A DNA stretch of 63,425 bases from an uncultured Gemmatimonadota bacterium (GCA_964576115.1 CAZNUA010000020.1:1-63425), one strand, 5' to 3'. Numbered from the stretch's first letter, positions 5,830 through 59,135 are shown. Notes: generated by a model not told the origin, from the letters alone. Made by a program: numbers and translations.

Positions 5830-5832
5830 ACC

Positions 5833-23227: not shown

Positions 23228-23299
23228 GACGCGTTCCTCCTGCCGCCCCTCTCTGGTGATCCCCTCTCTGCGCCGGGCACGAACATCATGGATACCTCT

Positions 23300-39227: not shown

Positions 39228-39458
39228 CTACTTCACTGATGGTGAGATAAATAAATCCAGGAGATAGGAGAAGTGCACGGCGGTATGCGTATAGCGCACA
39301 CCGGAATCCAATCGTGTCAGGAACAGACTCCGCAAGGAAACACCAAAACTGCTCCGTCTGGTGAATCGCCACTCTTTACCGAACAGCACCTGAACACCGA
39401 GCCCGAGAGACTTATCAGCGTCGATGAATCCTCCGTCTGAACGGACGTCTTCCTTCAC
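39228..39458 (-). pseudogene. Beta-barrel-like fragment, probable split C-terminus of the upstream gene
   Basis: GLGVQVLFGKEW, FGVSL strand patterns; overlaps stop of 39455..40126. Confidence 0.35.
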
Positions 39459-40126
39459 CCTACCGGCAAGCCAATGATGACTACAAAAGAGCCTAGAGTT
39501 GAAGACCTGCTGAAAGCGGCCAGTCCCAGGCCGGCATGGATATGGATGTATCGGCCTGCATGAGCTGTACTCAGTGTTATCGTAGTCGTCCGGCCTTCCT
39601 GAACAGCGATGGCGAGAGCCCGAATGATCCTTCCCGTTCCAAGTTGGTAAAGATCTTCAAGGCTGTTTGCATCACTCTCAACTGTCTGCTCTACCCTGGC
39701 TGTTTCAACATCTACGAGACGTAAATGGAGGGAATACAACTCACCAATCCTGGTTACACTTCCCGTAACCATTTTTTGCACTCCCAGAATCCGACCGACC
39801 TGGAGAACACATTCCTCGGTCGTGCAGGCGCCCGAATATTGAAAGCCCTGCTCTTCAAGAATCGTCACCATACGTTCCCGTTCAACGACGGTGAAAATCG
39901 GCTCCTCAATCATCCGTGCCCGGAGGCGCTCGGTCATGGCCTGAGCATCCCCCCGATCCAGGTTGATCGCACCCAATTCGAGCACTGCAACGTAGACCGG
40001 TTCCTGTCGCAGAAGAGATGGATTCGGGGATGATAATTTCTCTGACAGATTATGAACTTCCTCGCCCTGAATTGGAGCAACCGACAGGACGTGAAGAAGG
40101 CATACCAAGAAAAGGAGTGTTCTCAT
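39455..40126 (-). CDS. CsgG/HfaB-like exported protein
   Basis: Signal peptide; VAVLEL, TVVERERM..ILEEQGFQ.SG.C, VGRILGV, GSVTRIG, LRLVDVET. Confidence 0.75.
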   Translation of the reverse strand: MRTLLFLVCLLHVLSVAPIQGEEVHNLSEKLSSPNPSLLRQEPVYVAVLELGAINLDRGDAQAMTERLRARMIEEPIFTVVERERMVTILEEQGFQYSGACTTEECVLQVGRILGVQKMVTGSVTRIGELYSLHLRLVDVETARVEQTVESDANSLEDLYQLGTGRIIRALAIAVQEGRTTTITLSTAHAGRYIHIHAGLGLAAFSRSSTLGSFVVIIGLPVG

Positions 40127-40213
40127 ACTGAAACCTCTATGTCGAGTGATAGGGACACAATCCTTGAGGATGCACTACTTCGAAGTGAATCCTGTCTCGA
40201 ATCCCCGCCAACA

Positions 40214-40783
40214 CTATCTGCGAACCGTGATTGTCCTGACGCGCTCGCCCGCATCGAGCGGGTAACCGATCACCTCACCTTCCCATCGCACCTCAGAACC
40301 GGTGTATTCGATATGCCCTGTCGCTGTGTGGTTGCGGGTGATCCTGATTCCGGTCGCCTCACCCTCGAGTGGACCGATCAAAACACCCTTGCGGCGTTTC
40401 CATTTCCGGAACGAGCCTTCGATCGAAATAAGAAATCTCTCCTGGTAACTGCTCAGGGGTGTGCTTTCGGTGGTTTCCTCAGAGGGCAGATCCAGTTCGA
40501 TATTCCGCCGGGAGAGAGAATATCCGAACGGCAGGGATTCGCGCTCTTCCTCCCTCCATCCCTGCTGCCACCAGACTCCCCGCTCGAAATCGACCGTGAT
40601 CTCAACTTTACCGCCCGGCCAGAATGAAGCGGGTTTAAAAATAATCTCAAACTCCATGATCCCGGAGATCGTCAGGGAATGCGGCGGGAACAGGCGGTTC
40701 CACAGGCTGTGTCTGCTGTGTAACAGGCTGCATCCGGAAAGAAGGAGCGGCAGAAGCAGAATGAGGTGAAGGGACTTTTTCAT
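40214..40783 (-). CDS. Hypothetical lipoprotein
   Basis: MKK-hydrophobic-LSGC lipobox; no recognised domain. Confidence 0.55.
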   Translation of the reverse strand: MKKSLHLILLLPLLLSGCSLLHSRHSLWNRLFPPHSLTISGIMEFEIIFKPASFWPGGKVEITVDFERGVWWQQGWREEERESLPFGYSLSRRNIELDLPSEETTESTPLSSYQERFLISIEGSFRKWKRRKGVLIGPLEGEATGIRITRNHTATGHIEYTGSEVRWEGEVIGYPLDAGERVRTITVRR

Positions 40784-40906
40784 AGGTAGCACCTGCCCAT
40801 TGCATCGAGGAACAATATCCATCCAGAGACCAGGGCAGATATCAGTGTGAGGGAATAGAGCTATCCTGTCCAGCTATTCAATGTCGGCCTGAGAGAAACC
40901 CCTTAC

Positions 40907-41251
40907 TCACTGACCGAAGGCGTCGACCGCCTCGTCCACCTCCTCATAGACTTTCAGGATCGAATCGAAGCTCACGATATCGAAGACTTTCTGCACAAAG
41001 GGCTGGGCTGCGGCGCAGTAGAGATCGCCCCCCTCGCTGCGCAGGCGGTGCACCAGCCGGATCAGGATACTCAGTCCTCCCGAAGACATGTAGTCCACCC
41101 CCGAGAGATCGAGGACGATCTTCCGGCACTCGCCGAGGTTCTCGATCATGTGGTCATAGGCCGTGGGGGCTTCGACCGCATCGAGCCGACCGTTGAGGTG
41201 GTAGACGCCGATATCGGGATCGAATTCGGAGCGGTTGATCTCAAGAGCCAT
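40907..41251 (-). CDS. STAS domain anti-anti-sigma factor
   Basis: GRLDA, VLDLSGVDYMSSGGL (phosphoacceptor Ser), VQKVFDI. Confidence 0.92.
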   Translation of the reverse strand: MALEINRSEFDPDIGVYHLNGRLDAVEAPTAYDHMIENLGECRKIVLDLSGVDYMSSGGLSILIRLVHRLRSEGGDLYCAAAQPFVQKVFDIVSFDSILKVYEEVDEAVDAFGQ

Positions 41252-41603
41252 CGGTGTTTCCTCCCAGCGCCTGCACTGCTTCGTCAACGGTTTCGTAAAG
41301 GTCGAGCACGGTGTTAAGCATGAGCGTAGTGAAGAGTTGCGTGATTTTCTCGTTCGCAGATGCCAGAGCGAAGCGCCCGCCCGCTTCCAGACATTCGGTC
41401 CGACAACCCATCAGGGTTCCGATTCCTGAAGAGTTGAGCCAGGGCACGTTCGAGAGATCGATGACGATATGATTGAGTCCTTCTGCCAGAACGAGCTGTA
41501 CCGAATGATGGACTTCTTCGTTGAGGCTGCCCTCCATGAGCGCACCCCGTGGGGCGAATACGAAAACATCGCCATGGCGAGTGGTTGGGACCAGTTCTGT
41601 CAT
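41241..41603 (-). CDS. STAS domain anti-anti-sigma factor
   Basis: IDLSNVPWLNSSGIGTL, GGRFALA; overlaps next STAS gene. Confidence 0.9.
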   Translation of the reverse strand: MTELVPTTRHGDVFVFAPRGALMEGSLNEEVHHSVQLVLAEGLNHIVIDLSNVPWLNSSGIGTLMGCRTECLEAGGRFALASANEKITQLFTTLMLNTVLDLYETVDEAVQALGGNTDGS

Positions 41604-41663
41604 CGGACCCTCACCCCCCCTTCTTGACAGTGAAAAGCACCCGCCGATACGATACAAGATGTT

Positions 41664-43574
41664 ATGTCATCAGAACTTGAGCAGGTTCCCGAACCGTCGC
41701 GCCGAATTTACGAGCTGACGGCACTGTACGAGATCAGTCGGATCCTGCTCGCTTCCCCCACTCCCGAACAACTGGCCTTCGATGCCCTGACGGCCTCGAT
41801 GGGGCTGACCGGTTCGCAGTGGGGGATCATGTGGCGGGCCGGAGCCCCACCGGGAACCCTGCATCACCTGCGCAGCTGCGGCCGCCCCGCCCCCGCTGAA
41901 TCTCTCTTTACTCTTCCCCCGGAGTGGGTCGATCTCCTGACCGACCGGCAACAACCGGTTATTCTGGCCGATGGCCCCGAAAGGGCCGGAACCGGAGTCG
42001 CGGCCCGCGGCCGGGAACCTCCGGCTTCGCTGGCCGGAATCGGAGCCGAGATGCTGTTGCCGCTCTCCGAACGCGGCTCCTTTCTCGGGCTGATGGCCCT
42101 GGGCCCCAACCCGCTCGGTCGCGCTCCCGATCCCTTCCTCTCAGATCTGCTCGCTTCAGTAGCGCAACTCATTGCCATCGCGCTCGGTCGACAGAGCCGC
42201 ACTCCCGAAGCCGCTCTCGAACAGGTTCCGCCCACCATCCAGGCCTGGCGTCGACAGTACCCGATCTTAGGTGAGATCGTGGGGGAAAGCCAGTCGGTTC
42301 TCGATCTCTACGAACACCTCACGACGGTGGCTGCTTCCTCCTGTACGGTCCTGCTCGAAGGCGAAACCGGCTGCGGTAAAGAACTGGCGGCTCGGGTCCT
42401 GCACGGCCTCAGCCCTCGCCACGACGGCCCATTTATCGAGGTCGACTGCGGCGCCATACCCGAAAACCTGATCGAATCCGAACTCTTCGGGCACGAGAAG
42501 GGGGCCTTTACCGGCGCCGCCAGCTCACGCCGCGGCGTTTTTGCCCTGGCCGACGGCGGTACCCTCTTTCTCGACGAGGTGGCCAATCTGCCGCTGAAAA
42601 CCCAGAATCGCCTGCTGCGCGTGTTGCAGGAGCGCCGCTTCCGCCCCGTCGGAGGGGAAGAAAGTCTCGATGTCGACGTGCGCGTTGTGGCGGCCTCGAA
42701 CCGGAGTCTGCGCGAAGCGGTGCGCGAGGGCACTTTCCGCGAGGATCTTTTCTACCGGCTCTACGTCTACCCCATCCGGATCCCGCCCCTGCGCGACCGG
42801 CGGGATGACATCCCCGGCCTGATCGCCTTTTACCTGGAAAAATGCGCCCGCGACAACGATCTGCCGGTGCCGCTGCTGCCCGAGGAATTCGTCGAGCATC
42901 TGGTCCAGCACGATTTCCCCGGTAACGTGCGCGAGCTGAGGCATCTGGTCGAACGCTCCCTGCTTCGCTCCACCGGCCGGGAGTATCTGAGCCTGGAAGC
43001 GCTCGAAGAAGCCTTGAGCCGCACTCCGGCTGCAGCTCCCGATCCGACCGAGATCGTTCCCGACGAAGAGATTCCCGAACCGGTGCCTGCGGTCGAAACC
43101 GAACCCGAAACCGTATCCGGGCCGGATGGCACAGTCGAGTGGCCCGGCAGGGCCGGTGTGGAACGCGGCGTCTGGGTAGTGGATGAACTGCGCCGGCAGC
43201 GCTTCAACGTCAAGGCTACCGCCGAACGGCTGACCGCTCTGGCTCACGCCCGACCCGACAATCCGCCTCCCCTGACCGACCGCAGCAGCCTGACCTACTA
43301 CTTCCAGGTCGAATGTTTCCGTCACTACCTCGAACAGGGCGGTAACCTGAACCAGGCAGCGAATGCGATCGTGGGCGACGCGATCCGGTTTACCGATACC
43401 GTGCGCCGGCGCATGGCCGGTTACCTGGACTCGGCCGCCCTTGTCCTGGCCGACTGCAACAGCGAAACCGAAGCCCGCGAGGTGCTGCGCAGCAAGTTCC
43501 TGAAGCTGCCCGAAGATTACCTGACGGTGCTCGATCGCCTGGCCGAGCACCTCTGGGCGCTCAAAGACACGTAA
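41664..43574 (+). CDS. Sigma-54-dependent activator (GAF, AAA+, extended C-terminal HTH region)
   Basis: [50 protein letters not shown]-terminal GAF-like domain. Confidence 0.94.
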
Positions 43575-43641
43575 GGTTTACAACGATCCGCCACGGGCGT
43601 CCCTGGTCCCGGGCCGTCCCGCATGCGAGGAGGTTTCCCTG

Positions 43642-44643
43642 GTGTTCCGATCCCGATCCCCGCGATCTGTTGTCGTCGCGTTCGTACTCGCCCTTCTGCT
43701 CATGCCCCTGTTCGCGGGTTGCGGCAGCAGTGATGGACCGAAGGTGATTGATCAGACCGAGATTAAACGGCTCGAAGTCTACGATCCCGCTCTCGACACC
43801 TGGACCACTCTGGCCCCCATGATCACCCCCCGCAGCACTGCCGCGGCAGCCGTAATCGACGGCAAACTCTACGTCGTGGGCGGCCGGGATTCGCGCCGGG
43901 GGGTCGGTGCCATGAAGACCCTCGAGATCTACGATCCCGCTACCAACTCGTGGGCGAGTGGAGCCAACATGCTCACTGCCCGGTGGGGGCCTGCGGCGGT
44001 GGCTTTCAACGGGGAACTGTGGGTCATGGGCGGAGCCCTGACAGCCGACACCTTTTACGATGTGGTCGAGATCTACACTCCCGGTACTGATACGTGGCGT
44101 ACCGGCGAGGCAATGGACGTAGCCCGCTACCGCCCGGCGGTGGGGCTGGTCGACGGCCGGATCTACGTAGCCGGCGGTATGAGCACCGGGGGAACCGACA
44201 TCGACGACTTCGAGATCTGGGATCCGAACTACAACCAGTGGCTGACGACCGACGAGATGCCGGTGGCCCGCGGACAGGCCGCCTACGGTGTGTGGGGTGA
44301 CACCCTCTACGTCGCCGGCGGATTTCGCTGGCTCAGTGACAACCAGAAGACCACTCTCGACCGGTTCGACGCCTATGCCGACGGTCCCCGCTGGATGACC
44401 GGTCTGGCGGCCATGTCCCCGGCCCGGGCCGAAACAGCTTCGGGGATGATCAACGGCAAACTCTACGTCGTGGGCGGCATCACCGAGACAACTACGATCA
44501 CCTTCCACGACCGCCTCGACATCTACGACGTCGCCACCGATTCCTGGACCTCGGGCGCGGCTTCGGACACCCTGCGGGCCGAGGCCGCAGCGGGCGTGAT
44601 CAACGGCAAGCTCTACGTGGTCGGGGGTTACAACGGAGGGTAG
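43642..44643 (+). CDS. Kelch-repeat lipoprotein
   Basis: FAGC lipobox; six GG-containing Kelch blades (GKLYVVGG...YDP...W); AGGAGG RBS. Confidence 0.92.
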   Translation: MFRSRSPRSVVVAFVLALLLMPLFAGCGSSDGPKVIDQTEIKRLEVYDPALDTWTTLAPMITPRSTAAAAVIDGKLYVVGGRDSRRGVGAMKTLEIYDPATNSWASGANMLTARWGPAAVAFNGELWVMGGALTADTFYDVVEIYTPGTDTWRTGEAMDVARYRPAVGLVDGRIYVAGGMSTGGTDIDDFEIWDPNYNQWLTTDEMPVARGQAAYGVWGDTLYVAGGFRWLSDNQKTTLDRFDAYADGPRWMTGLAAMSPARAETASGMINGKLYVVGGITETTTITFHDRLDIYDVATDSWTSGAASDTLRAEAAAGVINGKLYVVGGYNGG

Positions 44644-44764
44644 CCAACAGCAACCAGACGAGCGAACGAGAAGTGCCGGCAGTTTGGCTGCCGTCCACCC
44701 CATCAGACAGAAAGTCGGGAAAGAAAAGACCTGTAAATCCAGAGGCCTGCAAGGAGGCCCACCG

Positions 44765-45766
44765 ATGGCTCACAGCCGACCTGTTCATATCGGACGTGAG
44801 AAGCCGCTCTTCGCCCTGTTCATCCTGCTCTTGATCCTTCCGGGGTGTCCCGATGGCAATCCCCCCGAGAACACCGAAATCAGCCGTCTGGAAGTCTACG
44901 ATCCCGCCCTCGATGAGTGGCAGACAATGACGCACATGGTCGAGCCGCGCAGCACCGCCGCGGCGGCCGTGATCGAGGGCAAACTCTATGTTGTCGGCGG
45001 TCGTGACATGAAGCGCGGCATCGGCTCGATGAACGTGCTCGAAATCTACGATCCCGCCACCGATTCCTGGACACATGGGGCGAACATGCCGACGAAACGA
45101 TGGGGCCCCGCCGCAGTGAACTTCAAAGACGAGCTGTGGGTCATGGGCGGAGCGCTCGCCTTCGATATTTACTACGACATCGTGGAAATCTATAACCCCG
45201 CCACCGATTCCTGGCGTACCGGCGAGGCGATGGACGTAGGCCGCTACAGACCCACGGTCGGGGTCATCAACGGCCGGATTTTCGTGGCTGGCGGCATGAG
45301 TGCCGGGGGAACCGACGTCGACGCCTTCGAGATCTGGGATCCGACCTACAACCAGTGGCTGACGACCGACGATATGCCAGTGGCCCGCGGGCAGGCCGCC
45401 TACGGGGTCTGGGGTGACACCCTCTATGTTGCCGGGGGCTTCCGGTGGCTCAGTGCGACCGAGAAAGAAACTCTCGATCGGTTCGATACCTATAGCGACG
45501 GTATCGGATGGCGGACAGGTCTGGCGGACATGCTGCTGGCCCGTGGTGAGACCGCCTCGGGGATGATCAACGGCAAGCTTTACGTTGTGGGCGGTATCAC
45601 CGAGACCGAAGAGAGTATGGTGTTCCACGACCGGCTCGATATCTATGACGTCGCCACCGATACGTGGACCACAGGCGCGCCGTCGGACACCCTGCGAGCC
45701 GAGGCTGCGGCTGGAGTCATCAATGGCAAGCTCTACGTCGTGGGGGGATATAACAGGAAGTGGTAA
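44765..45766 (+). CDS. Kelch-repeat lipoprotein (tandem paralog)
   Basis: LPGC lipobox; six Kelch blades colinear with the preceding gene; AGGAGG RBS. Confidence 0.92.
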   Translation: MAHSRPVHIGREKPLFALFILLLILPGCPDGNPPENTEISRLEVYDPALDEWQTMTHMVEPRSTAAAAVIEGKLYVVGGRDMKRGIGSMNVLEIYDPATDSWTHGANMPTKRWGPAAVNFKDELWVMGGALAFDIYYDIVEIYNPATDSWRTGEAMDVGRYRPTVGVINGRIFVAGGMSAGGTDVDAFEIWDPTYNQWLTTDDMPVARGQAAYGVWGDTLYVAGGFRWLSATEKETLDRFDTYSDGIGWRTGLADMLLARGETASGMINGKLYVVGGITETEESMVFHDRLDIYDVATDTWTTGAPSDTLRAEAAAGVINGKLYVVGGYNRKW

Positions 45767-45822
45767 AACCCGGGTTCGGGAGATCCCGGGGCGATGGACG
45801 ACAAAGAAAGGACTGACGGGTC

Positions 45823-47487
45823 ATGTCCCAGAGAAGAACCTTTCCTTCTCGCCTGATAGCGGTCGCAGTGGCCGGCATGGCGCTCTCGGCGGGTTTCGCA
45901 GCGGGTCCCCGTTCCCTGAAGGCCCAGGCGGCCGAAGAACAGATGCCCGCCCTATTCACCCGGTCCGAGGCGGGGGTGGTTCTCACCCTGCAGGACGCAG
46001 TGCAGTTGGCGCTGGATGAGTCCTTCGACCTCTACCGCCTGCAGGAAAAGTACCTGCAGTTGAACTACGGTCTGGAGACAGCCCGTCGGAGCCTGCGCAC
46101 CCGGGTGCTATTTTCTTCGATCCTGCCCCGGATCCAGGAGGGCTTCAAGAATTACCTCTACACCGACTTCGCGGGGACAATCAGTCTGAGCCCCTTCGAC
46201 GAGGCTATCCGCCAGGCCGCGGCCGGGATTTCGATCGTCCAGCCTCTGATCACCAACGGCCGGATCAGCCTGAACACCAGGTTGACCGCCTATCAGCGTT
46301 CGATGAAGAAACTGCCCCGCGGCACAACAGCCAACCTGCGTTACGTCATGCCGCGGGTGGCCCTTGAGTACAGCCAACCGCTGTTTCAGTACAATGACGT
46401 CAGGGGCCAGCTCGAGTCGGCCACTCTCGATCTCGAGGCTCTGCAGCTCAGCTACACCGAGGTCGAACTGGCCCGGATCAACGAGATCAGCGAGGCCTTT
46501 TTCCGGCTTTATGCCGCCCAGCATCTTCAGCAGATCGAAGCCGACACATGGCTGCAGCTGCAGCAGGCCCTGGCCGCGACCGAGCGCAAATACGAACTCG
46601 GTATGGTCTCCGAACTCGAAAAACTCGGTCTGGAGGTGGAGTTCCGCAACGCCCGTGACCGGCTCCTGCAGGCCGCCCACGATCTGGAAGCCGAACAACT
46701 GGCGTTCAAGCGGGCGGTCGGGATCGATGTCACCGAATCAATCTGGGTCTCTACACGGGATGACTTCACCCCCATTGCGGTCGAAGTCGATCGCGCAGTC
46801 AGGCTGGCTTTGGAGAACCGCAGTGACGTGCGGCAGGCCCGGATCGAGGTCGAGAAGACCGACCTGGAGATACGCCGGGTGGTGAGTTGGGGGCGGCCCG
46901 ACCTTCAGTTCAACCTGGCCTATGACGTGTCGGGCAACTCCACTATCGGGGAGTCGCTGCTCGGCCGCAGTGATCCATGGGGCGATCATCTCTCGGCCGG
47001 ATTCAAGGGTGACAACTCCCTGGCCAGCACCAACGTGAGCCTGACCCTGAACGTTCCCCTTTTCGACTGGCGCACCAATGATTCCCGGGTCCAGAGGCTC
47101 ATGTCCGAACGCCGGGTTCTCGAACGCGAGACGTTTGAAGCCGAGGCCGAACTGCGTCGGCAGGTACTCGAGCGGATCGACGGACTCGAGAGCGCCATGG
47201 AGCGTACAGGCCTGCAGGCACAGAACCGCACAGCAGCACGGGCCGGCTACGAGATCAGCCTCGAACTCTTCGAGAAAGGAGAGATCACCTACACCGAGAT
47301 GCTGTTCGCGCAGAACCGTTTCCTGCAAACCGAACAGATGTATTCAGCGGCGACGATCGACTACGAAATGGCCAAGGCACGTCTGCGCGAGATTACCCTG
47401 TGGGACTGGGAGACCGGGCAACCGGTGCGGCAGCAGACAACGCCGCCCGAACCCTTCGGACGGCGCCGGGAAACGGGCGGCAGATAG
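45823..47487 (+). CDS. TolC family outer membrane efflux protein
   Basis: LTLQDAVQLAL, YSQPLF, KYELGMVSELE, ALENRSD, LTLNVPLFDW, FEKGEIT. Confidence 0.88.
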   Translation: MSQRRTFPSRLIAVAVAGMALSAGFAAGPRSLKAQAAEEQMPALFTRSEAGVVLTLQDAVQLALDESFDLYRLQEKYLQLNYGLETARRSLRTRVLFSSILPRIQEGFKNYLYTDFAGTISLSPFDEAIRQAAAGISIVQPLITNGRISLNTRLTAYQRSMKKLPRGTTANLRYVMPRVALEYSQPLFQYNDVRGQLESATLDLEALQLSYTEVELARINEISEAFFRLYAAQHLQQIEADTWLQLQQALAATERKYELGMVSELEKLGLEVEFRNARDRLLQAAHDLEAEQLAFKRAVGIDVTESIWVSTRDDFTPIAVEVDRAVRLALENRSDVRQARIEVEKTDLEIRRVVSWGRPDLQFNLAYDVSGNSTIGESLLGRSDPWGDHLSAGFKGDNSLASTNVSLTLNVPLFDWRTNDSRVQRLMSERRVLERETFEAEAELRRQVLERIDGLESAMERTGLQAQNRTAARAGYEISLELFEKGEITYTEMLFAQNRFLQTEQMYSAATIDYEMAKARLREITLWDWETGQPVRQQTTPPEPFGRRRETGGR

Positions 47488-47633
47488 GTGTCCGGACCGG
47501 GCAGAAAAAGTGAGCGGGAGCACCCGGCCGTGACCTGCCTGGCACCCCCGCTCGATATGACCGCACCCTGGTCTCTGGAGGTCGGACCCTGCGTTTCGGG
47601 TTCAGAATCCGCAGGTGACGGTCAGAACCGCTG

Positions 47634-48134
47634 CTACTCCTGCAGCTCCTCGCCCATCGGGGCCCGGCGCGGAGCTTCCTTCTCCTGCAGTTCCTCGCCC
47701 ATCGGGGCCCGTCGCGGAGCTTCCTTCTCCTGCAGCTCCTCACCCATCGGCGCCCGTCGCGGAGCTTCCTTCTCCTGGAGCTCCTCACCCATCGGCGCCC
47801 GTCGCGGAGCTTCCTTCTCCTGGAGCTCCTCACCCATCGGCGCCCGTCGCGGAGCTTCCTTCTCCTGCAGCTCCTCACCCAGCGGGGCTCGACGCGGAGC
47901 TTCCTTCTCCTGCAGTTCCTCACCGATCGGCGCCCGGCGCGGAGCTTCCTTCTCCTGCAGCTCTTCGCCTACCGGGGCCCGGCGCGGGGCCTCCTTCTCC
48001 TGCAGTTCCTCACCGACGGGAGCCCGTCGGGGTGCTTCCTTCTCCTGGAGCTCCTCGCCCATCGGAGCCCGGCGCGGAGCTTCCTTCTCTTCCAGTTCCT
48101 GGTCCTTGTGGACCGGCTTGCGCGGCTCGTCCAT
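47634..48134 (-). CDS. Tandem-repeat peptide, 10 x 15 aa; candidate multicore precursor
   Basis: 11-aa head, ten (Q/E)EL(E/Q)EKEAPRRAP[MVIL]G units, terminal EELQE; AAGGGGG RBS; sigma-54 promoter upstream; mostly synonymous differences between DNA units. Confidence 0.85.
   Translation of the reverse strand: MDEPRKPVHKDQELEEKEAPRRAPMGEELQEKEAPRRAPVGEELQEKEAPRRAPVGEELQEKEAPRRAPIGEELQEKEAPRRAPLGEELQEKEAPRRAPMGEELQEKEAPRRAPMGEELQEKEAPRRAPMGEELQEKEAPRRAPMGEELQEKEAPRRAPMGEELQE
47637..48101. repeat. 45-bp coding tandem repeat, about 10.3 copies
   Basis: Unit GGAGCTTCCTTCTCCTGCAGCTCCTCRCCCATCGGSGCCCGKCGC with scattered variation; no spacers. Confidence 0.97.
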
Positions 48135-48180
48135 TGTAATACCCCCTTATGGCGTATGTGGGACTCGCACCCGAAACAAC

Positions 48181-48195
48181 GCAATCATTGTGCCA
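48181..48195 (-). promoter_or_regulatory. Sigma-54 (-24/-12) promoter of the repeat-peptide gene
   Basis: Minus strand TGGCAC-AATGA-TTGC, exact GG-N10-GC spacing, 46 bp upstream of the ATG. Confidence 0.85.
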
Positions 48196-48331
48196 GTCTG
48201 TCAGGAGCAATTCCCGATAGCGCCTGAAGTCGCTGCTGGCGGGCCTCGAGGCCCGATCCCGGGCCTTCCCTCCGGGTCTGTATCCGGACTCCGCCGAATG
48301 TGGATAACTCCCGATGGTGAGGAATTCGTGC

Positions 48332-48371
48332 CTGAGTGTGGAATTCCAGTACGCACTGAGTGTGGAATTCC
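48332..48371. promoter_or_regulatory. Direct repeats, candidate upstream activator sequences
   Basis: CTGAGTGTGGAATTCC at 48332 and 48356 (24-bp period), with degenerate copies near 48299-48328. Confidence 0.55.
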
Positions 48372-48392
48372 CCTTCCCGGAGCCGTTCGGCC

Positions 48393-49865
48393 GTGAAACG
48401 GTACGAGCTGCAGCTCGACGCGGGATCGGAGACCCTGGGCGAGGTCATGACCTTCATGCGATCATCCCTGGGCGGTCATCTCAAGGCCGGGGTGATGCTC
48501 ACGGTCGAACTGGTCGTCGAGGAACTGGTCACCAACGTTCTCAAACACGGCTATACCGAACACGGCGGACCGGTCCGGGTCGAGTTCCAGATTGCCGGGG
48601 ACTACTGCCTCTTTATTCTCGCCGATCGGGCTCCGACCTTCGATCCCACCCGCCTCACCGGTCTGCCGGCCGACCGCACCGAGGGCGGTCGAGGGCTGCC
48701 GCTGGTGCGCGAACTCGTCGGCGAACTGCGTTACGAACGCACTCTGGAGGGCTGGAATATCACCACCTGCACCTTCGCTTTCCCCGCTGCAGCCACCGAC
48801 GACTGCAGTCAGACCGCATCGGTCGAGCTCCCCTCTCCACTCGATGCCCCGAATCTGAAACCCGGCGTGACACTGACGACTCTCAAAGAAGGAGCGGTTC
48901 TGGTCGAAGGCCCCGGTCTGGACAGCTGGATCACCGATGAGGGCACAGCCACCGTACTCGAGGTCTGTGACGGGCGTCCGTCCGAGGAGATCGCCGCCGG
49001 GCTCAACGAACGTTTCAACTGGGGCCTGAGCGGGGCCGACGTGCGCAGTCTGCTCGAACGTTGGGCCACATGGGGCTATCTCGAAGGCACGCCGACGCGC
49101 TCCGAACGCCTCGTGCGGGCCGATCCCGCTCCCCTGCTCAGAATTCTGCGCCCTCTCACGCGCCTCTACGGCCGCCGCTCCACCGCCCTCGCAGCGGGCC
49201 TGCTGGCCGCGGCCGCACTGGTTCTGACCGTGGTACACGGCCCCCGCGTTCTGGCTGCCTACGGCCAGATCGCCCGGCTGCACTCGGTGTGGGGAGCGGC
49301 TCTGGTCATCCTCGGGTACTACCTGGGGTACTCGGTCACGGCTTTCTTCCACGAGCTCGGGCACGCCCTGGCCGTATACCGGCATGGCGGCGAGGTGCCC
49401 GAGATCGGCATCAGGAGGAACTTCAATTTCTTCGTCCTGGCCAACCGGGATATCCTCCTGACACCCGCCGACCGCATCTGGTACTATGCGGGCGGACTGC
49501 TCAGTGACACGGTGTGGTGGTTCGGTGCGTGGGTGTGGTGGCTGGCGGCGCCCGGCCCTCTGCCGCTGTTCCTGCTGGTCCCGCAGACCGTTTATTTCCT
49601 GCTCTACGCCTGGGCTCCGTCGGGGTACAGCGACGCGGCCCTGGTACTGCGCGAAGCGGTCGGCTGGACACCGCTTTCGAGGATCCGACGGGGTACCGAC
49701 TGGTCGAAGCGGTGGAAAGAAGCCCCCGGCGCCCAGCGCGCGCTCGAGATCGCGCGCCTGACCCTGGGAGCAGCTCTGATCGTCTTCATCGCCGTCCACG
49801 ATCTCTACCTCATCGCCCTCTACATCATCTACCGTCTGCTCAGAAAGGGGCTGAACCGGTTGTGA
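48393..49865 (+). CDS. Fusion: RsbW-like HATPase, PqqD/RRE-like domain, M50-like membrane metalloprotease
   Basis: EELVTNVLKHGY, DRAPTFDP, EGGRGL; EVCDGRPSEEIAAGL...LLERWATWGYL; FFHELGHA, YAGG, multiple TM helices. Confidence 0.75.
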   Translation: MKRYELQLDAGSETLGEVMTFMRSSLGGHLKAGVMLTVELVVEELVTNVLKHGYTEHGGPVRVEFQIAGDYCLFILADRAPTFDPTRLTGLPADRTEGGRGLPLVRELVGELRYERTLEGWNITTCTFAFPAAATDDCSQTASVELPSPLDAPNLKPGVTLTTLKEGAVLVEGPGLDSWITDEGTATVLEVCDGRPSEEIAAGLNERFNWGLSGADVRSLLERWATWGYLEGTPTRSERLVRADPAPLLRILRPLTRLYGRRSTALAAGLLAAAALVLTVVHGPRVLAAYGQIARLHSVWGAALVILGYYLGYSVTAFFHELGHALAVYRHGGEVPEIGIRRNFNFFVLANRDILLTPADRIWYYAGGLLSDTVWWFGAWVWWLAAPGPLPLFLLVPQTVYFLLYAWAPSGYSDAALVLREAVGWTPLSRIRRGTDWSKRWKEAPGAQRALEIARLTLGAALIVFIAVHDLYLIALYIIYRLLRKGLNRL

Positions 49866-50821
49866 TGCGTCGAAACGAAACGAGTTCCCAGACTCTGAAG
49901 CTGCTTGCGTCGGGCGCGGTGGTTGCGCTCCTCGCGTTCGTCACGGCGGGGATCGTGAGCGGCTGCGGCGGGCAGGCACCGGAGCAGACCGGGGAGGCTG
50001 CCGCAGCCGCCGAAGCGGAACAGGTGCCGGCCAATGCCGGTCGGCGCCTGCAACCCGAGGTGCCCCACTCCCCGACCCGGCGCCCCTCGCATGAGACCGT
50101 TCCGGACCGCGGCGGGATTCGGACCGCCGGGGGCGGCGAGCGCACTTTCACCACCGTGCTCACCTCCCGCCGGGCCGTGACGGTCCTGAGCCGCATCGCC
50201 GGCACGGTCACCGCACTCGAGGTTGAAGAGGGTGACCGGGTGCGGGGTGGCGGCGTGCTGGCGCGCCTCGACGACCGCTCCCGGCAGATCGCCCGCGACC
50301 GGGCCGCCGCCGAAGCCCGGCGCACCCGGGCCCTCTATGAGCGCAACCGCGAGGCCTTCGCCTCGAATACTGCGGTCCGGGTGGTGTCGGCACTCGAACT
50401 CGAGGTCTCCGAGGCCGAATACCTCAAGGCGCAGGCCGATTCGGCCCTGGCCGAACTCGAGTTGAGCTACACCCGCATCACCGCCCCCTTCGCCGGGGTG
50501 GTGACCGAACGCTTCATCGACGCGGGAGAGTGGATCGCGGCCCGGGAGGATCTGTTTACCGTGGCCGAGCTGGGCCGCCTCTGGGCGGTCTTTATCGTAC
50601 CGCCCGAAGTCGACGCCGACCTGCAGTCAGGGCAGATCGTGGCCCTGCGGATCGGCAACGGCGAGATCACCCTCGACGCCGACGGGCGCCTGGTGCGCAC
50701 CAGCCCCGTGCTCGATCCGGCCAGCGGGGGGGTGAAGATCACGATCGAGATCACCAACTCCCAGAGCCTGTACAAACCGGGTATGACCGCCACCATCGAT
50801 TTCGGCGCGCCCGGAGGCTGA
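49865..50821 (+). CDS. Efflux membrane fusion protein (periplasmic adaptor)
   Basis: SRIAGTV..VEEGDRV..G.VLARLD, ITAPFAGVV, PGM; VSGC possible lipobox; TGATG overlap. Confidence 0.88.
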   Translation: MRRNETSSQTLKLLASGAVVALLAFVTAGIVSGCGGQAPEQTGEAAAAAEAEQVPANAGRRLQPEVPHSPTRRPSHETVPDRGGIRTAGGGERTFTTVLTSRRAVTVLSRIAGTVTALEVEEGDRVRGGGVLARLDDRSRQIARDRAAAEARRTRALYERNREAFASNTAVRVVSALELEVSEAEYLKAQADSALAELELSYTRITAPFAGVVTERFIDAGEWIAAREDLFTVAELGRLWAVFIVPPEVDADLQSGQIVALRIGNGEITLDADGRLVRTSPVLDPASGGVKITIEITNSQSLYKPGMTATIDFGAPGG

Positions 50822-50834
50822 GGACTCATCAGCC

Positions 50835-52892
50835 GTGGCCGAGGTCCCCGACTACCCGAGACTGCGCGAGGACATCACCTTCTCGCGGGTGGTGATGCGC
50901 GGCGAGGAAACCTTCATCGCCAAGGACCCGGTCCGGCGCAAGTACATGCAGTTCGACCGGCTGGGGCGGCGCATCTGCGAGCTCTGCAACGGCCGCAACT
51001 CCCTTGCGGACATGGTCGAGCAGCTGGGGCGCGATTTCCCCGAGTGGGATTTCGATCTCGAGTACGTGACCGAGTACGTCGAGCACCTGATCGACATGCG
51101 CCTGATCTTCCGCGACCGGATGGAATACAACGTCCTGATGATGGAAAAGGTCCGGCGCGAGCGCGAGCACCACAACACCCTGCTTCACATGACCTTCCCG
51201 GCCGTGGACCCGCACAAGTTCTTCGCCTGGCTGATGGACCGCCTGCGCTGGATAGCCTCGAAACCCTTCATGATCTTCTACTGGGTTTTCGTGATCGGCT
51301 CCTACGCCGTGCTCGTCGGCAATCTCGAGGAAACCTGGGCGGGGCTGTCTGGTTTTTACATCTTCACCGGCTGGTCGCTGGGCGAGATCGTCGGTCTATA
51401 TCTCGTCATTCTGCTGATCATGGTCATCCACGAGTTCGGCCACGGAATGACCTGCGTGTATTACGGCGGGGAAGTACATCAGATGGGCTTCCTGCTCATC
51501 TACCTGATCAACCCCGCCCTCTACTGCAACGTGTCCGACTCCTACCGCTTCCCCCGCAAGCTGCACCGGCTGATGGTGGTCTACGGGGGACCGCTGGTGG
51601 AGATGTTCATCGGGGCCGCCTTCGTCTATGTCTGGTGGCTCTCGGATCCGAAGCTGCTGATCCACGACTTCGCCTTCAAGATCGTGATCTTCTCCTCGAT
51701 CTCGGCCTGGATCTTCAACATGAATCCCCTGCTCAAATACGACGGGTACTACATCCTGAGCGAGATGGTCGACATCCCCAACCTGCGCAAGCGGGCCTTC
51801 GGCTATCTGGGTTTTGTCTGGAAATCGTTCTTCAACCTGCCGGCCGACAAACCCCCCGGCGGCCGGCGCGAGCAGCGTATCTACCTGCTCTATTCGATCG
51901 CCGCTTTCATCTACTCGATCATGATCTTCTCGATCATCTACGGTCTCTTGAAACGCTGGTTCGTAGGGGGACTGGCCGCCTTCGGGTGGATTCTGCTGGT
52001 GGCCACCATGTACCTGATCCTGCGCAGACCGATCGGCAAGGGAGTGGATTTCGTGAAGCTGGCTGCCATGGACCGCTCCGGATTCATCCGGCGCAACATC
52101 CCCGTCGTCATCACCATCCTGGCCCTGCTCCTCGTCCTGCCGGCCGTGATCAGAACCCCGACCGTGGACCGGCGCCTGGCGATCCTGGAACCCTACTACC
52201 AGGTCAACGTCGAAGCCGCGGCGCCGGGGTACGTGCGCGAGCTGACTGTGAATACCGGCGACGATATCGCTGCGGGGCAGGTCCTGGCCCGCATCGAGAG
52301 TACGGTCCTGGAGCGTGAACTGATCGGGGTGCGCCACGAGATCGAGCGCACCCGGGCTCTGGCCGGAGAGGCCTCGTCCCGCGGCGACGCTTCGGCCGTG
52401 AGCGGCTACCGCGCTGAACTGGCCCGCCTGACCGAGAGCGAGGACCTGATTCTGGATCGCCACGAAGCTCTGGAGGTGCGCTCACCCCTCGAAGGCCGGG
52501 TCCTCAATCCCCACGTCTCGGAGGTTGAACACCGCTTCGTGCGCGAGGGTGAGATGCTGATGCAGATCGGGCGGACCGATTCGCTGCGGGTGCGTCTCGA
52601 GATCCCCGAACGGAACATGGCCGACGTCGAACTCGGCTCGCGGGTCAAATTCAAGCCGGCCTCGCGGCCCGGCGAAGTGGTGCGGGGACGGGTGGTGGTG
52701 ATCGATCTGGCCGGTGAAGCGGCCGTCGACGAAGAAGCATTCTACGGAGTTGAGATCGTCATGGATAATTCCGCCCTGGGCCTGGTGCCCGGCCAGCGCG
52801 GCAAGGTGCGCCTCTATGGCAAGAGCCGATCGCTGTGGGGGCAGCTGATCCGCTCCGCCATTCAGACCTTGAGACTGGACTTTTTCATTTGA
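50835..52892 (+). CDS. PqqD/RRE-like, M50 (site-2) zinc metalloprotease, HlyD adaptor fusion
   Basis: PRLREDI...KDP...ELCNGRNSLAD; IHEFGHG, GGPLVE, FNMNPLLKYDGYY; APGYV, VRSPLEGRV, PGQRG. Confidence 0.88.
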   Translation: MAEVPDYPRLREDITFSRVVMRGEETFIAKDPVRRKYMQFDRLGRRICELCNGRNSLADMVEQLGRDFPEWDFDLEYVTEYVEHLIDMRLIFRDRMEYNVLMMEKVRREREHHNTLLHMTFPAVDPHKFFAWLMDRLRWIASKPFMIFYWVFVIGSYAVLVGNLEETWAGLSGFYIFTGWSLGEIVGLYLVILLIMVIHEFGHGMTCVYYGGEVHQMGFLLIYLINPALYCNVSDSYRFPRKLHRLMVVYGGPLVEMFIGAAFVYVWWLSDPKLLIHDFAFKIVIFSSISAWIFNMNPLLKYDGYYILSEMVDIPNLRKRAFGYLGFVWKSFFNLPADKPPGGRREQRIYLLYSIAAFIYSIMIFSIIYGLLKRWFVGGLAAFGWILLVATMYLILRRPIGKGVDFVKLAAMDRSGFIRRNIPVVITILALLLVLPAVIRTPTVDRRLAILEPYYQVNVEAAAPGYVRELTVNTGDDIAAGQVLARIESTVLERELIGVRHEIERTRALAGEASSRGDASAVSGYRAELARLTESEDLILDRHEALEVRSPLEGRVLNPHVSEVEHRFVREGEMLMQIGRTDSLRVRLEIPERNMADVELGSRVKFKPASRPGEVVRGRVVVIDLAGEAAVDEEAFYGVEIVMDNSALGLVPGQRGKVRLYGKSRSLWGQLIRSAIQTLRLDFFI

Positions 52893-52937
52893 GATCGGCT
52901 CTCGAACGCGAGTGTCATTGCGGAATGGTGCCTGAAG

Positions 52938-54848
52938 ATGACCGAGAATAACGAGAACCTGCAACGGGAACTGGACGCCGCCTACCGCCAGCTCGAGCAG
53001 ACGGCCAGCCGGCTGCTCCTGGTCAATCAGGCGGGTATGCTGACGGCCTCGACCCACGACCCGCGCGTCATCGCCCGGGAACTGCTGGCCAGCATCCTCG
53101 ACAGCGTCTTCGCCAGGAGCGGCCTGGTTATCCTGTATTCGCGCGGGGGAGCCGTTTTTGATGTGCTGGCTCACCAGGGGCTCAGCGAGGCCGAGCTCGC
53201 GGCCTTTGAGCAGAGCAACACCGAGGCGACCGCGCTCTGGATCAGCTCGCTGCGCAAAGCCCCGGTGACCCGCGGTGACATCACGGGGGCCGAAGAATGG
53301 GAAGCCGGACTCGATGAGCCGGCCGGGGCGGTCTACATGCCTCTGCTGATCGAGGACGAACTCGTCGGCGCCCTGGTGGTCGGCGACAAGACCACCGCCG
53401 ACGAGTACGACCGGGGCGAAGTGAGCTTCCTGGCCAATCTCGGTCATCACGCCGCCGTGGCTTTGAACCACGCCTCCCTCTACAGCCAGCTTGAGAAGAA
53501 GCTGCGCGACCTCGACACCCTGCTCACCATCAGCCAGGAGATCACCTCCACCCTCGACCTCGACCGGATCCTGAAAACCATCACCACCATGGCCTCGGCG
53601 CTCTCCGAACTGGAATACTGCGCCATCGGCCTGACGCGCGGCGGGCGTCTGAAGATCGACTCGATCGGCGGCACCGAACCCTCCAAGGACGAAAAGGAGT
53701 CGCTGCGCAACCTGATGGAGTTTGTCAGCCTGGCCGGCACCGAAATCTCGGCCACCGCCGCCGAGTTGCCCGAGGGTGAGGGCCGCGACCTGTTCCGCGA
53801 GCACTTCGAGAGTACTGAAACCGGTGGTTTCTGGGGCCTGCCCCTGAAAGACGACCAGGGTGTCATGGGGGCCTACTGCCAGCTGCGGGCCCGCGGTATC
53901 CCCGATGAAGAAGAACAGGAACTGCTGCGCATCCTCGGCAACCAGGCCTCGGTCGCCATCCGCAACGCCGAACTCTACAACCAGGTACCCCTGATCGGTT
54001 TCCTCGAACCCCTGCTCGAAAAACGCCGCAAACTCTGGGAGGCGGGTCGCCGCAAGTGGCGCACGGCCGCAGTCTGGACGGTGGTCGCGGGCGCTCTGCT
54101 GCTGCTCGTGCGCCTGCCCTACCGCACCGGCGGCGACGCGGTGGTCTTCCCCGGCCAGCGCCTGCAGCTGCGCACGCCCGTGGCGGGGATCGTGGATGAG
54201 GTCACCGCTCTGGAAGGCGAGGTGGTCGGCCCCGATCGCCCGGCCGGGCGCATTCTGAGCCTCGAGGCCGAGATGGAATACCGCGACCTGCAGAACGCCC
54301 TGGAGCGGGCCCGGCGCGAGGAAGCTGCCGCGCGCGCTCGCAACGATCTCTTCGCCGCCCAGCTGGCCGAGACCGACCGCGTTTCCCTGACCGCCCAGCT
54401 GACCCTGCTGAGCCGTGAACTCGAGGCCGCCACTATCGCCCCCCCCTTCCCGGCCGTGATCCTCACTCCCCACGTCGAAGAGCGTAAGGGGGACTACCTG
54501 GCTTCGGGCGATACCTTCTGTGAGGTCGGCACCCTCGATTCGCTGCGCATCGAGATCGCTCTGCCCGAGAAGGACTGGCATGCGGTCGAACTGGGCCAGC
54601 CGGTGAAGATGAAGTTCTACGCCTACGCCGAGCGCACCTTCACCGGAACGGTGGACATCCTCGCCCCGGCCGCTCTGCAGCGCAGGGACGACAAGCGGGT
54701 CCTGATCGCCACCGTGCGCATCCCCGCCCCCGAGGGACTGCGTCCCGGCATGAACGGGGTCGGCAAGGTCCGCCTCGGCCGCCGCAGCCTGCTCTGGTTC
54801 GTGGCCCGCCCCTTCGTGCGGTTCGTGTCGCTGCGGTTGTGGTTCTGA
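52938..54848 (+). CDS. GAF-GAF-TM-HlyD membrane fusion protein
   Basis: MPLLIEDELVGAL...AVALNHASLY; LGNQASVAIRNAELY; TM; TPVAGIV, IAPPFPAVI, LRPGMNG. Confidence 0.85.
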   Translation: MTENNENLQRELDAAYRQLEQTASRLLLVNQAGMLTASTHDPRVIARELLASILDSVFARSGLVILYSRGGAVFDVLAHQGLSEAELAAFEQSNTEATALWISSLRKAPVTRGDITGAEEWEAGLDEPAGAVYMPLLIEDELVGALVVGDKTTADEYDRGEVSFLANLGHHAAVALNHASLYSQLEKKLRDLDTLLTISQEITSTLDLDRILKTITTMASALSELEYCAIGLTRGGRLKIDSIGGTEPSKDEKESLRNLMEFVSLAGTEISATAAELPEGEGRDLFREHFESTETGGFWGLPLKDDQGVMGAYCQLRARGIPDEEEQELLRILGNQASVAIRNAELYNQVPLIGFLEPLLEKRRKLWEAGRRKWRTAAVWTVVAGALLLLVRLPYRTGGDAVVFPGQRLQLRTPVAGIVDEVTALEGEVVGPDRPAGRILSLEAEMEYRDLQNALERARREEAAARARNDLFAAQLAETDRVSLTAQLTLLSRELEAATIAPPFPAVILTPHVEERKGDYLASGDTFCEVGTLDSLRIEIALPEKDWHAVELGQPVKMKFYAYAERTFTGTVDILAPAALQRRDDKRVLIATVRIPAPEGLRPGMNGVGKVRLGRRSLLWFVARPFVRFVSLRLWF

Positions 54849-54952
54849 GGCGACAGTAGTTGCAACTGGCGTAGAACTTCATTCCCCGGGGTACGTATAT
54901 CAATACCACACCAGAGCTTATTCCATGACAGACAGATGCATCGGAGAAGAGT

Positions 54953-55846
54953 ATGCGAATCCGGACCTCGAAGGCCCCGATCATCCTTGCCCTGGTCCTC
55001 TTGATCACCACACCGGAAGCAGTCTCGGCCGGCACCGTCCAGGTCGAATCCGAGCCGGATGCAGCCATCATCGACACCCTGATATCGGTCGGCGAGAACC
55101 GTCTTCACTTCCAGATCATCGAGGGCCGCAAGCCGGCCATCCTCCTGGAATCGGGCGGGGGCTACAACCTGGAGCAGTGGATGATGCTGGCCCCGTGGCT
55201 GGCCCGCGAGACCGGAGCGGCAATCATCACCTACGACCGGGCCGGCTTCGGGCAGAGCGACCTGCCCGAGGTCCCGCATGACATGAGACTCGAGGCCGGT
55301 TGGCTCTGGAACGGGCTCGAACAGCTCGGGCTGGACTCAGACCTCGTCCTGGTCGGGCATTCCTTCGGGGGCTGGATGATCCGCCTGGAAGCGAACGAGC
55401 ATCCCGAGGCCGTGCGCGGTATGGTGTTCATCGATCCCTTCACGACCGAGTTCGTCGATCGGCTCGGGGTGGAGTACCTCGATGATCACCCCATGGCGGG
55501 CAGGCTCCCCTTCGACACTTCCGATCCGGCCAGTCTCACGACCCTGCAGCGGGCCCAGGTGCGCATGGTCGGTGACGGGCTGGCGCCGAAGATAGCCATC
55601 ATGCGGGACACGAGGATTCCGGAGGGCATTCCGGTCGAGGTCATCACCTGCGCCCGGCAGTTTCTCCCGAAAGTGGAGGAACATCAGGCCTGGCACACGG
55701 CTCACGAGCATCTGGCGGAGTCGATCCCGGGCGCAGTCCTCATCCCGGCCGAAAACAGCAATCACCTGGTCCCGCTCTTCCAACCCGGCCTCGTCGTCGA
55801 GTCGGTCACCCGCGTCTATGGTCGCATAACCGAATCGGGGAAATAA
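54953..55846 (+). CDS. Exported alpha/beta hydrolase
   Basis: YDRAGFGQS, VLVGHSFGG nucleophile elbow, SNHLVP catalytic His; signal peptide. Confidence 0.9.
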   Translation: MRIRTSKAPIILALVLLITTPEAVSAGTVQVESEPDAAIIDTLISVGENRLHFQIIEGRKPAILLESGGGYNLEQWMMLAPWLARETGAAIITYDRAGFGQSDLPEVPHDMRLEAGWLWNGLEQLGLDSDLVLVGHSFGGWMIRLEANEHPEAVRGMVFIDPFTTEFVDRLGVEYLDDHPMAGRLPFDTSDPASLTTLQRAQVRMVGDGLAPKIAIMRDTRIPEGIPVEVITCARQFLPKVEEHQAWHTAHEHLAESIPGAVLIPAENSNHLVPLFQPGLVVESVTRVYGRITESGK

Positions 55847-55881
55847 CTGACCGTCTAATCCCGAGTGTTCCCGTCTGAGCC

Positions 55882-59020: not shown

Positions 59021-59135
59021 GATTGGTTGCAGGCAAAGTGATCCGGTTGCAGGAAAAGTAACCCGGTTGTAAGAAAAGTGACCCGGTTGCAGGCAATCTG
59101 ATGCGGCTAGAGAAAATGTGACGCGGATGCAGGTG
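59021..59135. repeat. Degenerate 20-bp tandem repeat, about 6 copies
   Basis: GGTTGCAGG-like cores at 59025, 59045, 59065, 59085, 59105, 59125. Confidence 0.8.

Follow-up and report, generated by a model that had tools for sequence, protein, structure and literature searches.

We analyzed a 63,425-nt contig from an uncultured Gemmatimonadota bacterium (GCA_964576115.1 CAZNUA010000020.1:1-63425, hereafter the window), in which a gene cassette at positions 40907-54848 surrounds a small gene for a repeat peptide. Genes were called from a listing of open reading frames (ORFs) and from hidden Markov model (HMM) scans with Pfam and NCBIfam, and the starts of several genes were re-examined. An initial annotation of this DNA had described, around the repeat-peptide gene, a TolC protein, three adaptor domains of the HlyD or membrane-fusion protein (MFP) type, two proteins joining an HExxH membrane domain to a domain like the recognition element (RRE) of peptides that are ribosomally synthesized and modified post-translationally (RiPPs), Kelch lipoproteins, a sigma-54 activator, STAS proteins and an RsbW-like domain. 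HMM annotation found all of them in place (Table 1), the two Kelch lipoproteins being paralogues with 76% identity over 307 residues. The same annotation had reported that radical SAM, YcaO, LanM and ATP-grasp enzymes are missing from the window; the scans detected none of these and no other tailoring enzyme, either in the window or in the flanks of related cassettes.

The repeat peptide is encoded by a 166-aa minus-strand ORF of 10 tandem 15-residue units, with the stop codon directly after the last unit. The product begins with a 20-residue N-terminal part ending in ELEEKEAP, continues with units of the form RRAPxGEELQEKEAP and closes with the piece RRAPMGEELQE. Glu, Pro and Arg account for 44, 22 and 21 of the 166 residues, and the peptide, with a net charge of about -13, is acidic and unfolded-looking. 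Its ATG sits 8 nt after the Shine-Dalgarno (SD) site AAGGGGGT and 46 nt downstream of the sigma-54 promoter TGGCACaatgaTTGC. The peptide matched nothing in Pfam or NCBIfam, Rfam gave no match within 40000-56000, and a terminator scan gave 1 weak site, no more than chance.

Conservation of the gene was examined in six genomes of the same order (the relatives); orthologues of the cassette's protease-adaptor protein, at 55-85% identity, occurred in 7 of the 10 genomes of this order, the window's own included. In 6/6 relatives, the peptide ORF occupied the same place and had the same orientation. In the window and the six relatives together (7/7), it had an ATG, an SD site, the sequence TGGCAC-N5-TTGC about 60 nt upstream and a stop right after the last unit. 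Alignment of the seven upstream regions showed only four conserved islands, namely three GAATTCC(A/G)CA-type repeats and the promoter, in which TGGCAC and TTGC were invariant. A scan of metagenome contigs gave 11 loci, one of them the window itself; all loci with enough flank showed the same cassette, and the promoter stood at -61/-62 in 9 of the 11. The initial annotation had named homologous cassettes without a similar peptide gene as evidence that would speak against it; because the relatives, the metagenome contigs and, as described below, cassettes of distant phyla carry such genes, its proposal survives on this point.

The substitution pattern could not decide the coding strand, because the minus frame and one plus frame fit it equally. 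Copy-to-copy differences fell at codon position 3 in 28 of 31 cases in the minus frame and 27 of 30 in the plus frame, and the synonymous/non-synonymous codon differences were 25/4 and 24/5, respectively. The same plus frame was open in 14/14 family members, and a 302-aa shadow ORF on the plus strand (47488-48396) covers the entire repeat in antisense, together with the promoter and upstream repeats. We nevertheless regard it as hardly credible that the repeat is non-coding or that this plus-strand ORF is the gene, since the ORF has no conserved start, crosses the conserved promoter and upstream repeats and enters the next gene; moreover, antisense frames of G+C-rich genes often stay open, and an open frame opposite such coding DNA is to be expected. 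The minus strand was thus called from the conserved start, SD site, stop and promoter and not from the substitution pattern. These features led us to conclude that the minus-strand ORF, which the initial annotation had already placed inside the cassette, is a real gene, predicted from its promoter to be sigma-54-dependent and from its repeats to encode a multi-core precursor peptide.

The count of 10 copies comes from the assembly of this window. Public contigs from 4 DNA runs, compared with 47300-48400, matched the flanks and broke inside the array, so that no contig of these runs spans it; contigs L112 and L026 likewise carry 10 units. In a word-indexed search of a 5.8-billion-cluster protein set, the peptide had only 1 relative, which may be because gene callers pick the 302-aa shadow ORF. 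A profile search of 1.84 billion representatives returned 93 matches at E <= 0.001, mostly within much longer proteins; 7 of the 93 were read, and 4 were judged to be true relatives (P0122, P0001, P0141 and P0145). In P0122 a GspE-type N-terminal domain is joined to the repeat peptide, probably an assembly or gene-call chimera. The same search also turned up P0127, P0149 and P0150, proteins whose tandem repeats are of the PRRAP(L/I)G or APRRAxxGW type.

We tallied the repeat motif over 104 units from 16 peptides of the family, many of which are near-identical kin. The residues L(-7), K(-4), E(-3), A(-2) and P(-1), numbered from a presumed cleavage site, were each present in 104/104 units, R at +1 and M, L, V or I at +5 in 103/103, and E(-8) in 88/104, whereas unit length ranged from 12 to 31 residues across the family and the linkers varied in both sequence and length. 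This motif resembles the leader motif of the daptides. The feature by which daptide clusters came to light was an RRE domain joined N-terminally to an intramembrane site-2 protease; daptide precursors have ELExMEAP as a common leader motif, its P standing at -1 (spanning -8 to -1 in MpaA1), cleavage occurs directly after the motif, and L(-7) and M(-4) are required for RRE binding or RRE-dependent processing (10.1101/2023.03.08.531785). Measured against the motif as given there, the window unit E-L-(Q/E)-E-K-E-A-P fits at 5/7 fixed positions, including L(-7) and P(-1), and the daptide M(-4) is replaced by K in all 104 units. Because the unit fits the daptide leader motif, each repeat may, by analogy, be both a recognition and a cleavage site. 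What is new here is the daptide-like L-x-E-K-E-A-P sequence followed by R, read from every one of the 104 units.

The 685-aa protein of the cassette matched the daptide protease profile (NF041824, daptide_HExxH) over profile positions 25-365. Site-2 proteases (peptidase family M50) are recognized by two motifs, HExxH within a membrane helix and NxxPxxxxDG, which includes a zinc-binding Asp. The corresponding residues H199, E200, H203, P298, D303 and G304 were invariant in 107 homologues of the 685-aa protein, and the catalytic residues are kept in both HExxH proteases of the cassette. We examined an AlphaFold2 (AF2) model of the 685-aa protein (pLDDT 86.1). Residues 6-93 matched lasso-peptide B1 RREs solved with leader peptides (VIA Z 10.1 for 6jx3_B, and 9.9), and residues 127-377 matched RseP (Z 10.0, 135 aligned) and SpoIVFB (Z 9.8, 139 aligned), the VIA range of 9.2-10.0 being middling for helical folds. 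Residues 420-685 matched the adaptors MacA, MexA, AcrA and EmrA (VIA Z about 15; Foldseek E 2e-13), and an alpha-hairpin lies at residues 490-544. The RRE and protease fold matches came from the VIA wide search only; a Foldseek search with the whole model returned adaptor matches only, and a sequence-profile search of the PDB with the protein returned no site-2 protease.

In the 501-aa protein, residues 154-402 aligned with positions 10-284 of the protease-adaptor family with a probability of 98.9% (hhalign). A complex prediction for RRE residues 1-100 with peptide residues 1-45 scored 0.02 against a mark of 0.32, a result that carries no weight either way. On these sequence and fold matches we assign the 685-aa window protease to the RRE-fused site-2 proteases of daptide clusters, as a homologue that is additionally fused to a MacA/AcrA-like adaptor, although it stays below the equivalog cut-off of that family and the daptide enzymes are missing. 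The earlier proposal that the RREs recognize the precursor has gained indirect support from a daptide-type leader motif in every repeat and from a fold like that of lasso B1 RREs, and the binding itself is argued by analogy.

Table 1. Features of the cassette and of a phosphatase gene that flanks related cassettes.
Feature	Position	Strand	Evidence and remarks
STAS (anti-sigma-antagonist-type) protein 1	40907..41287	-	PF01740 E 1e-20, TIGR00377 E 2e-19; SSGG serine motif in translation; likely start ATG 41251
STAS protein 2	41241..41657	-	PF01740 E 4e-14; likely start ATG 41603; orthologues in L025, L028, L029
Sigma-54 enhancer-binding protein, N-terminal GAF-fold domain	41664..43574	+	PF00158 E 9e-68; GAFTGA in translation
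Kelch beta-propeller lipoprotein 1	43642..44643	+	Kelch_1 E 3e-54; lipobox LFAGC
Kelch beta-propeller lipoprotein 2	44684..45766 (possible start 44765)	+	Kelch_1 E 2.5e-50; lipobox
TolC-type outer-membrane factor	45823..47487	+	PF02321 OEP E 5e-36, two stretches
Repeat precursor gene, 166 aa	47634..48134	-	ATG, SD AAGGGGGT and stop after last unit, all kept in 7/7 genomes
45-bp tandem repeat underlying the peptide gene, 10.3 copies	47637..48100	.	Tandem Repeats Finder (TRF) score 674, 88% matches
Sigma-54 (-24/-12) promoter TGGCACaatgaTTGC	48181..48195	-	Start 61 nt upstream of peptide ATG; only exact match in the 63 kb window
Three GAATTCCACA repeats, GAATTCC(A/T)CA, spacing ~24 nt	48318..48370	-	Invariant blocks in 7-genome alignment; no other exact matches in window
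RsbW-like HATPase_c_2 + RRE-like + HExxH membrane domain, 501 aa	48360..49865 (possible start GTG 48393)	+	PF13581 E 2.5e-16; NF041824 E 4.5e-11
Membrane-fusion (periplasmic adaptor) lipoprotein	49865..50821	+	TIGR01730 124.4 bits vs cut-off 94.9; lipobox
RRE + site-2-protease-type + MFP/HlyD fusion, 685 aa	50835..52892	+	NF041824 E 1.5e-51
GAF-GAF-transmembrane (TM)-HlyD adaptor	52938..54848	+	GAF_2 E 5e-16, GAF E 3.5e-12, HlyD_D23 E 2e-13
GAF-SpoIIE phosphatase, related cassettes	L025:1622-2971, L026:1158-2519, L029:1571-3013, L028:16481-17854		

The features of a sigma-54 regulon were all present: the cassette has a perfect -24/-12 promoter and a GAFTGA-bearing activator, and the genome encodes rpoN (212.6 bits). 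The initial annotation had tied sigma-54 to the peptide, and the conserved promoter gives this tie a place in the DNA: that sigma-54 controls the peptide gene is read straight off the sequence. The three conserved repeats, about 125-190 nt upstream of the promoter, are probably the activator's upstream binding sites. The N-terminal domain of the activator was only weakly matched by GAF in Pfam (E 0.008), and its AF2 model (pLDDT 79.1) matched phytochrome GAF domains (Foldseek E 5.6e-8, TMq 0.63).

The cassette also holds parts of a partner switch, namely two STAS proteins and a HATPase_c_2 domain, with no sigma factor gene in the cassette and no PP2C phosphatase in the window. A GAF-SpoIIE (PP2C) phosphatase gene and a third STAS gene flank the cassette in 4/4 relatives examined (Table 1), and an orthologue of the phosphatase with 65% identity was found in the window's own genome, at the very end of another contig (G000:C63:15650-17047). 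In the RsbW-like domain (48405-48830) and its orthologues, the N box (E..N...H) is kept, as is the RG in the G2 region. Their G1 box is degenerate in this lineage, reading DRAPTF or DRSPAF versus DxGxGF, and the stand-alone acidobacterial homologue in L105 reads DPGPGF. These sequences suggest that ATP binding by the fused RsbW-like domain may be impaired.

Related cassettes differ in content. TolC and Kelch genes were present in the window and in L025, L026, L027 and L112-L114, and in all of these the peptide gene is the direct neighbor of TolC, the Kelch genes being the other shared element. Both are missing from the G003/G005 lineage, whose RRE-protease has no RsbW domain either, and the repeats are still present there. 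The peptides of this lineage (L028, L029, L116-L121; P0141 and P0145) carry RR-x-S-hydrophobic after the presumed cut, for example RRASVF, which we take to resemble the Kemptide motif of basophilic kinase substrates; the RsbW fusion was present in RRAP lineages and absent in RR-x-S lineages. In one genus, a gene for a MATCAP/DUF1704-type metallocarboxypeptidase (PF08014, E 1.3e-40; L028:8807-10075, genome G005) lies between the peptide and RRE-protease genes, and the gap at the same place in L118 probably holds the same type of gene. This position hints at C-terminal trimming of the cut peptides; on gene content, the carboxypeptidase may trim their acidic C-termini.

Relatives of the protease-adaptor protein were found at no fewer than 591 loci (at least 591) of a species-level genome collection, and the best 80 were used for the distant comparisons. 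They span Acidobacteriota, Gemmatimonadota, Planctomycetota, Zixibacteria and others, and are annotated at the source as 'putative peptide zinc metalloprotease protein' or 'efflux RND transporter periplasmic adaptor subunit'. The GAF-HlyD adaptor gene co-occurs with the protease-adaptor gene in many distant loci, and the order GAF-HlyD, MFP, protease-HlyD is common to many loci of Acidobacteriota, Gemmatimonadota and Eisenbacteria, usually followed by a small, oppositely oriented gene together with a sigma-54 activator and STAS, and in L105 also by an RsbW-like gene. Cassettes of other phyla with 24-32% protease identity had small genes at the same position, often with tandem repeats. A tandem repeat with a period divisible by 3 lay within 800 nt after the protease-adaptor stop in 19 of 77 distant loci versus 1.3 expected, the expectation being the repeat density elsewhere in the same loci and the kin among them not being independent. 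Of these 19 repeats, eleven formed clean small ORFs, encoded on the strand opposite to the protease-adaptor gene and built of 5-12-residue units, several of them with sigma-54-like promoters.

Other distant cassettes had small unrepeated ORFs with a similar N-terminal leader. When 9220 small ORFs were searched with the pattern E-[LIVM]-..-[RKM]-.-[ATS]-P, 13 matched, all in 5 cassettes and with tails of 3-24 residues, and in these the pattern reads ELE(E/Q/D)R(I/V)(A/T)P. In L031, such a leader is followed by twelve units of about 12 residues, each containing RKAP. Four Gemmatimonadaceae cassettes (L047:10256-12543, L053, L057 and L077) have two to five separate precursor genes each; the precursors have a leader in common (…RIELT-EQ… ELE-RI-AP), and their tails are variable and very short, at 3-11 residues. 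A database search with the acidobacterial peptides gave weak low-complexity matches only.

We compared the cassette with known systems. The searched literature on site-2/M50 proteases, RREs and HlyD adaptors held no description of it, and the daptide paper (MpaA/MpaP; 10.1101/2023.03.08.531785) was the only link there of an RRE to a site-2 protease. Daptide clusters and the cassette share an RRE fused N-terminally to an HExxH site-2-type protease, a precursor motif, E-L-x-x-(M/K)-E-A-P, whose last residue precedes the cleavage site (presumed in our case), and several precursor copies per cluster. The window differs in having no oxidative decarboxylase, aminotransferase, methyltransferase or ABC (ATP-binding cassette) transporter, in a peptide that ends in E and lacks the invariant C-terminal Thr, and in precursor copies fused into one ORF in a diderm host with a TolC gene and sigma-54 control. 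Furthermore, the window protease scores below the equivalog cut-off and carries a C-terminal MFP domain.

The epipeptide system YydF/YydH (LiaK family) relies on a membrane HExxH protease for the maturation of a small ribosomal peptide. Matches of the cassette proteins to NF058609 were weak (E 7e-12 and 1e-3; 45.5 versus a cut-off of 225), and the window lacks the radical SAM epimerase and the ABC exporter. The cyanobactin precursor PatE holds several cores with flanking recognition sequences, and its cluster encodes two subtilisin-like proteases, PatA and PatG, with macrocyclization and heterocyclization of the products; the likeness, by description only, is the multi-core precursor with recognition sequences and two encoded proteases, and the window proteases are of an unrelated type. 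In the enterococcal pheromone route, the site-2 protease Eep yields short unmodified linear signals from lipoprotein signal peptides, which leave through the ABC exporter PptAB; the host there is monoderm, there is no RRE, and export is by ABC. With MacAB-TolC and HlyBD-TolC, the window shares a TolC-type factor and MacA/MexA/AcrA-like adaptors with an alpha-hairpin. Unlike the tripartite pumps and type I systems, it has no ABC, RND (resistance-nodulation-division) or MFS (major facilitator superfamily) component, and its sole polytopic inner-membrane proteins are the two protease domains. The initial claim that the cassette fits no standard RiPP class stood as to the tailoring enzymes and needed correction as to the protease, which has a known relative in the daptide type. 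The system is best filed as RRE-guided peptide maturation by a site-2 protease, with an adaptor fusion and a TolC gene, control by sigma-54 and a partner switch, multi-core precursors and no tailoring enzymes.

Outside the cassette, the window contains glycogen genes and five duplicated permeases of the ADOP family (at 440-14694 and 55882-58955), three of them with a preceding PadR regulator gene and none with an adjacent ATPase; HMM scans detected no ABC ATPase anywhere in the window. Two genes next to the cassette were considered as members and rejected: an alpha/beta hydrolase gene (54953-55846), which is not conserved beside the cassette in the relatives, and an ADOP permease gene (55882-58605), which is not conserved there either and has its own PadR gene on the other strand. 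Upstream of the cassette lie a CsgG/LpoB-like lipoprotein gene (39455-40126) and, on the minus strand, a gene for a 431-aa membrane protein with a Hint/intein-like module (37827-39122; weak Vint, Hint and intein N-terminal matches). A HepT-like RNase and a nucleotidyltransferase are encoded at 22754-24245 (minus strand) in the usual HepT/MNT toxin-antitoxin arrangement, and a 20-bp tandem repeat with 3.5 copies (TRF score 103) occupies the intergenic positions 59025-59093.

We propose, with roughly even confidence for and against and largely by analogy with the daptides, that each repeat of a multi-core precursor serves for its recognition, that the precursor is cleaved into about ten peptides, and that these leave the cell by way of adaptors and TolC. 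Each repeat of the ELEEKEAPRRAPMG-type peptide would present a daptide-type recognition motif, E-L-x-E-K-E-A-P, to be bound by the cytoplasmic RRE domains of both HExxH site-2-type proteases, and the protease would cut after Pro, as the daptide protease does. The first product would be a leader of 20 residues; about nine 15-mers (RRAPxGEELQEKEAP) would follow, and the last 11 residues would be left as an end piece, with further trimming possible. The pieces would exit through a channel in which the protease-HlyD fusion, the GAF-HlyD protein and the MFP lipoprotein are docked to the TolC encoded beside the peptide gene, and the STAS, RsbW-like and GAF components would tune production. Because regulators dominate the cassette, we lean toward signaling over killing as the role of the released peptides. 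A wider version of this proposal, which we hold only tentatively and think more probably wrong than right, is a peptide-release pathway of diderms in many phyla. In it the RRE-guided protease-MFP fusion would itself be the inner-membrane part of a TolC-docked channel, pump-free and completed by GAF and lipoprotein adaptors, and multi-core precursors would yield short unmodified signal peptides at a level set by sigma-54 and the partner switch.

Several observations weigh against the proposed cutting and export. HMM scans found no ABC, RND or MFS transporter in the cassette or in the flanks of the relatives, so that the inner-membrane step has no known carrier or energy source. None of the 3 acidobacterial loci annotated with Pfam had an OEP/TolC gene nearby, so the TolC link is lineage-specific. 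The 685-aa protease falls below the curated cut-offs (NF041824, 175.7 versus 300; PF02163, 23.0 versus 27.2 bits), the daptide comparison uses a published logo known as text only, and the related loci are kin, many near-identical, such that counts across them overstate independence. Finally, only a 13-residue motif is conserved while the linkers vary, a pattern that fits a multivalent ligand too.

The last point leads to an alternative in which the peptide is a regulator or scaffold: the RRE-binding string would gather protease-adaptor and RsbW-RRE-protease molecules, nucleate an adaptor ring or switch STAS/RsbW, and then be degraded. We consider this rather unlikely and still worth weighing, given that the conserved part is the motif alone (L-x-EKEAP-RR-x-[PS]-hydrophobic, in units of 12-31 residues), that one RRE is fused to an RsbW-like domain, and that regulators make up much of the cassette, with GAF-SpoIIE and a third STAS in the flanks of all four relatives examined. 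However, the single-motif precursors of related cassettes, with short variable tails and several separate genes, suit substrates better; the G003/G005 lineage keeps the repeats without the RsbW fusion, and both proteases keep their catalytic residues.

The TolC gene and the three adaptors, along with the acidic, unfolded-looking character of the repeat protein (net charge about -13), might bring to mind a type I-like route in which only the N-terminal 20 residues are removed and the disordered protein is exported intact. This is improbable in our view, as the recognition and cleavage motif recurs in every unit beyond the N-terminus and neither an ABC ATPase nor a C-terminal secretion signal of the RTX (repeats-in-toxin) kind is present. 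It is very unlikely that the gene merely happens to be in the cassette and encodes an unrelated sigma-54-induced cytoplasmic protein, such as a stress protein or hydrophilin. A hydrophilic, charged, low-complexity protein with no family match would suit that idea, but the gene holds a fixed position by the protease genes in 6/6 relatives and the metagenome contigs, small genes occur at the analogous position in other phyla, and the motif agrees with the leader motif that goes with the protease family.

The cleavage-and-release proposal is directly testable with synthetic DNA, since the motif is invariant and the sigma-54 promoter perfect. If it is true, the precursors would be a source of ribosomal peptides missed by cluster mining that is keyed on tailoring enzymes. 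Transfer of cut peptides to TolC by the protease-adaptor fusion, if it occurs, would make the fusion an inner-membrane partner of a new type for tripartite channels. In monoderm bacteria, short linear peptide signals and their processing by site-2 proteases are well known; in diderms they are, to our knowledge, nearly unknown. The cassette points to a way, so far undescribed, in which diderms may cut up and release short peptides.

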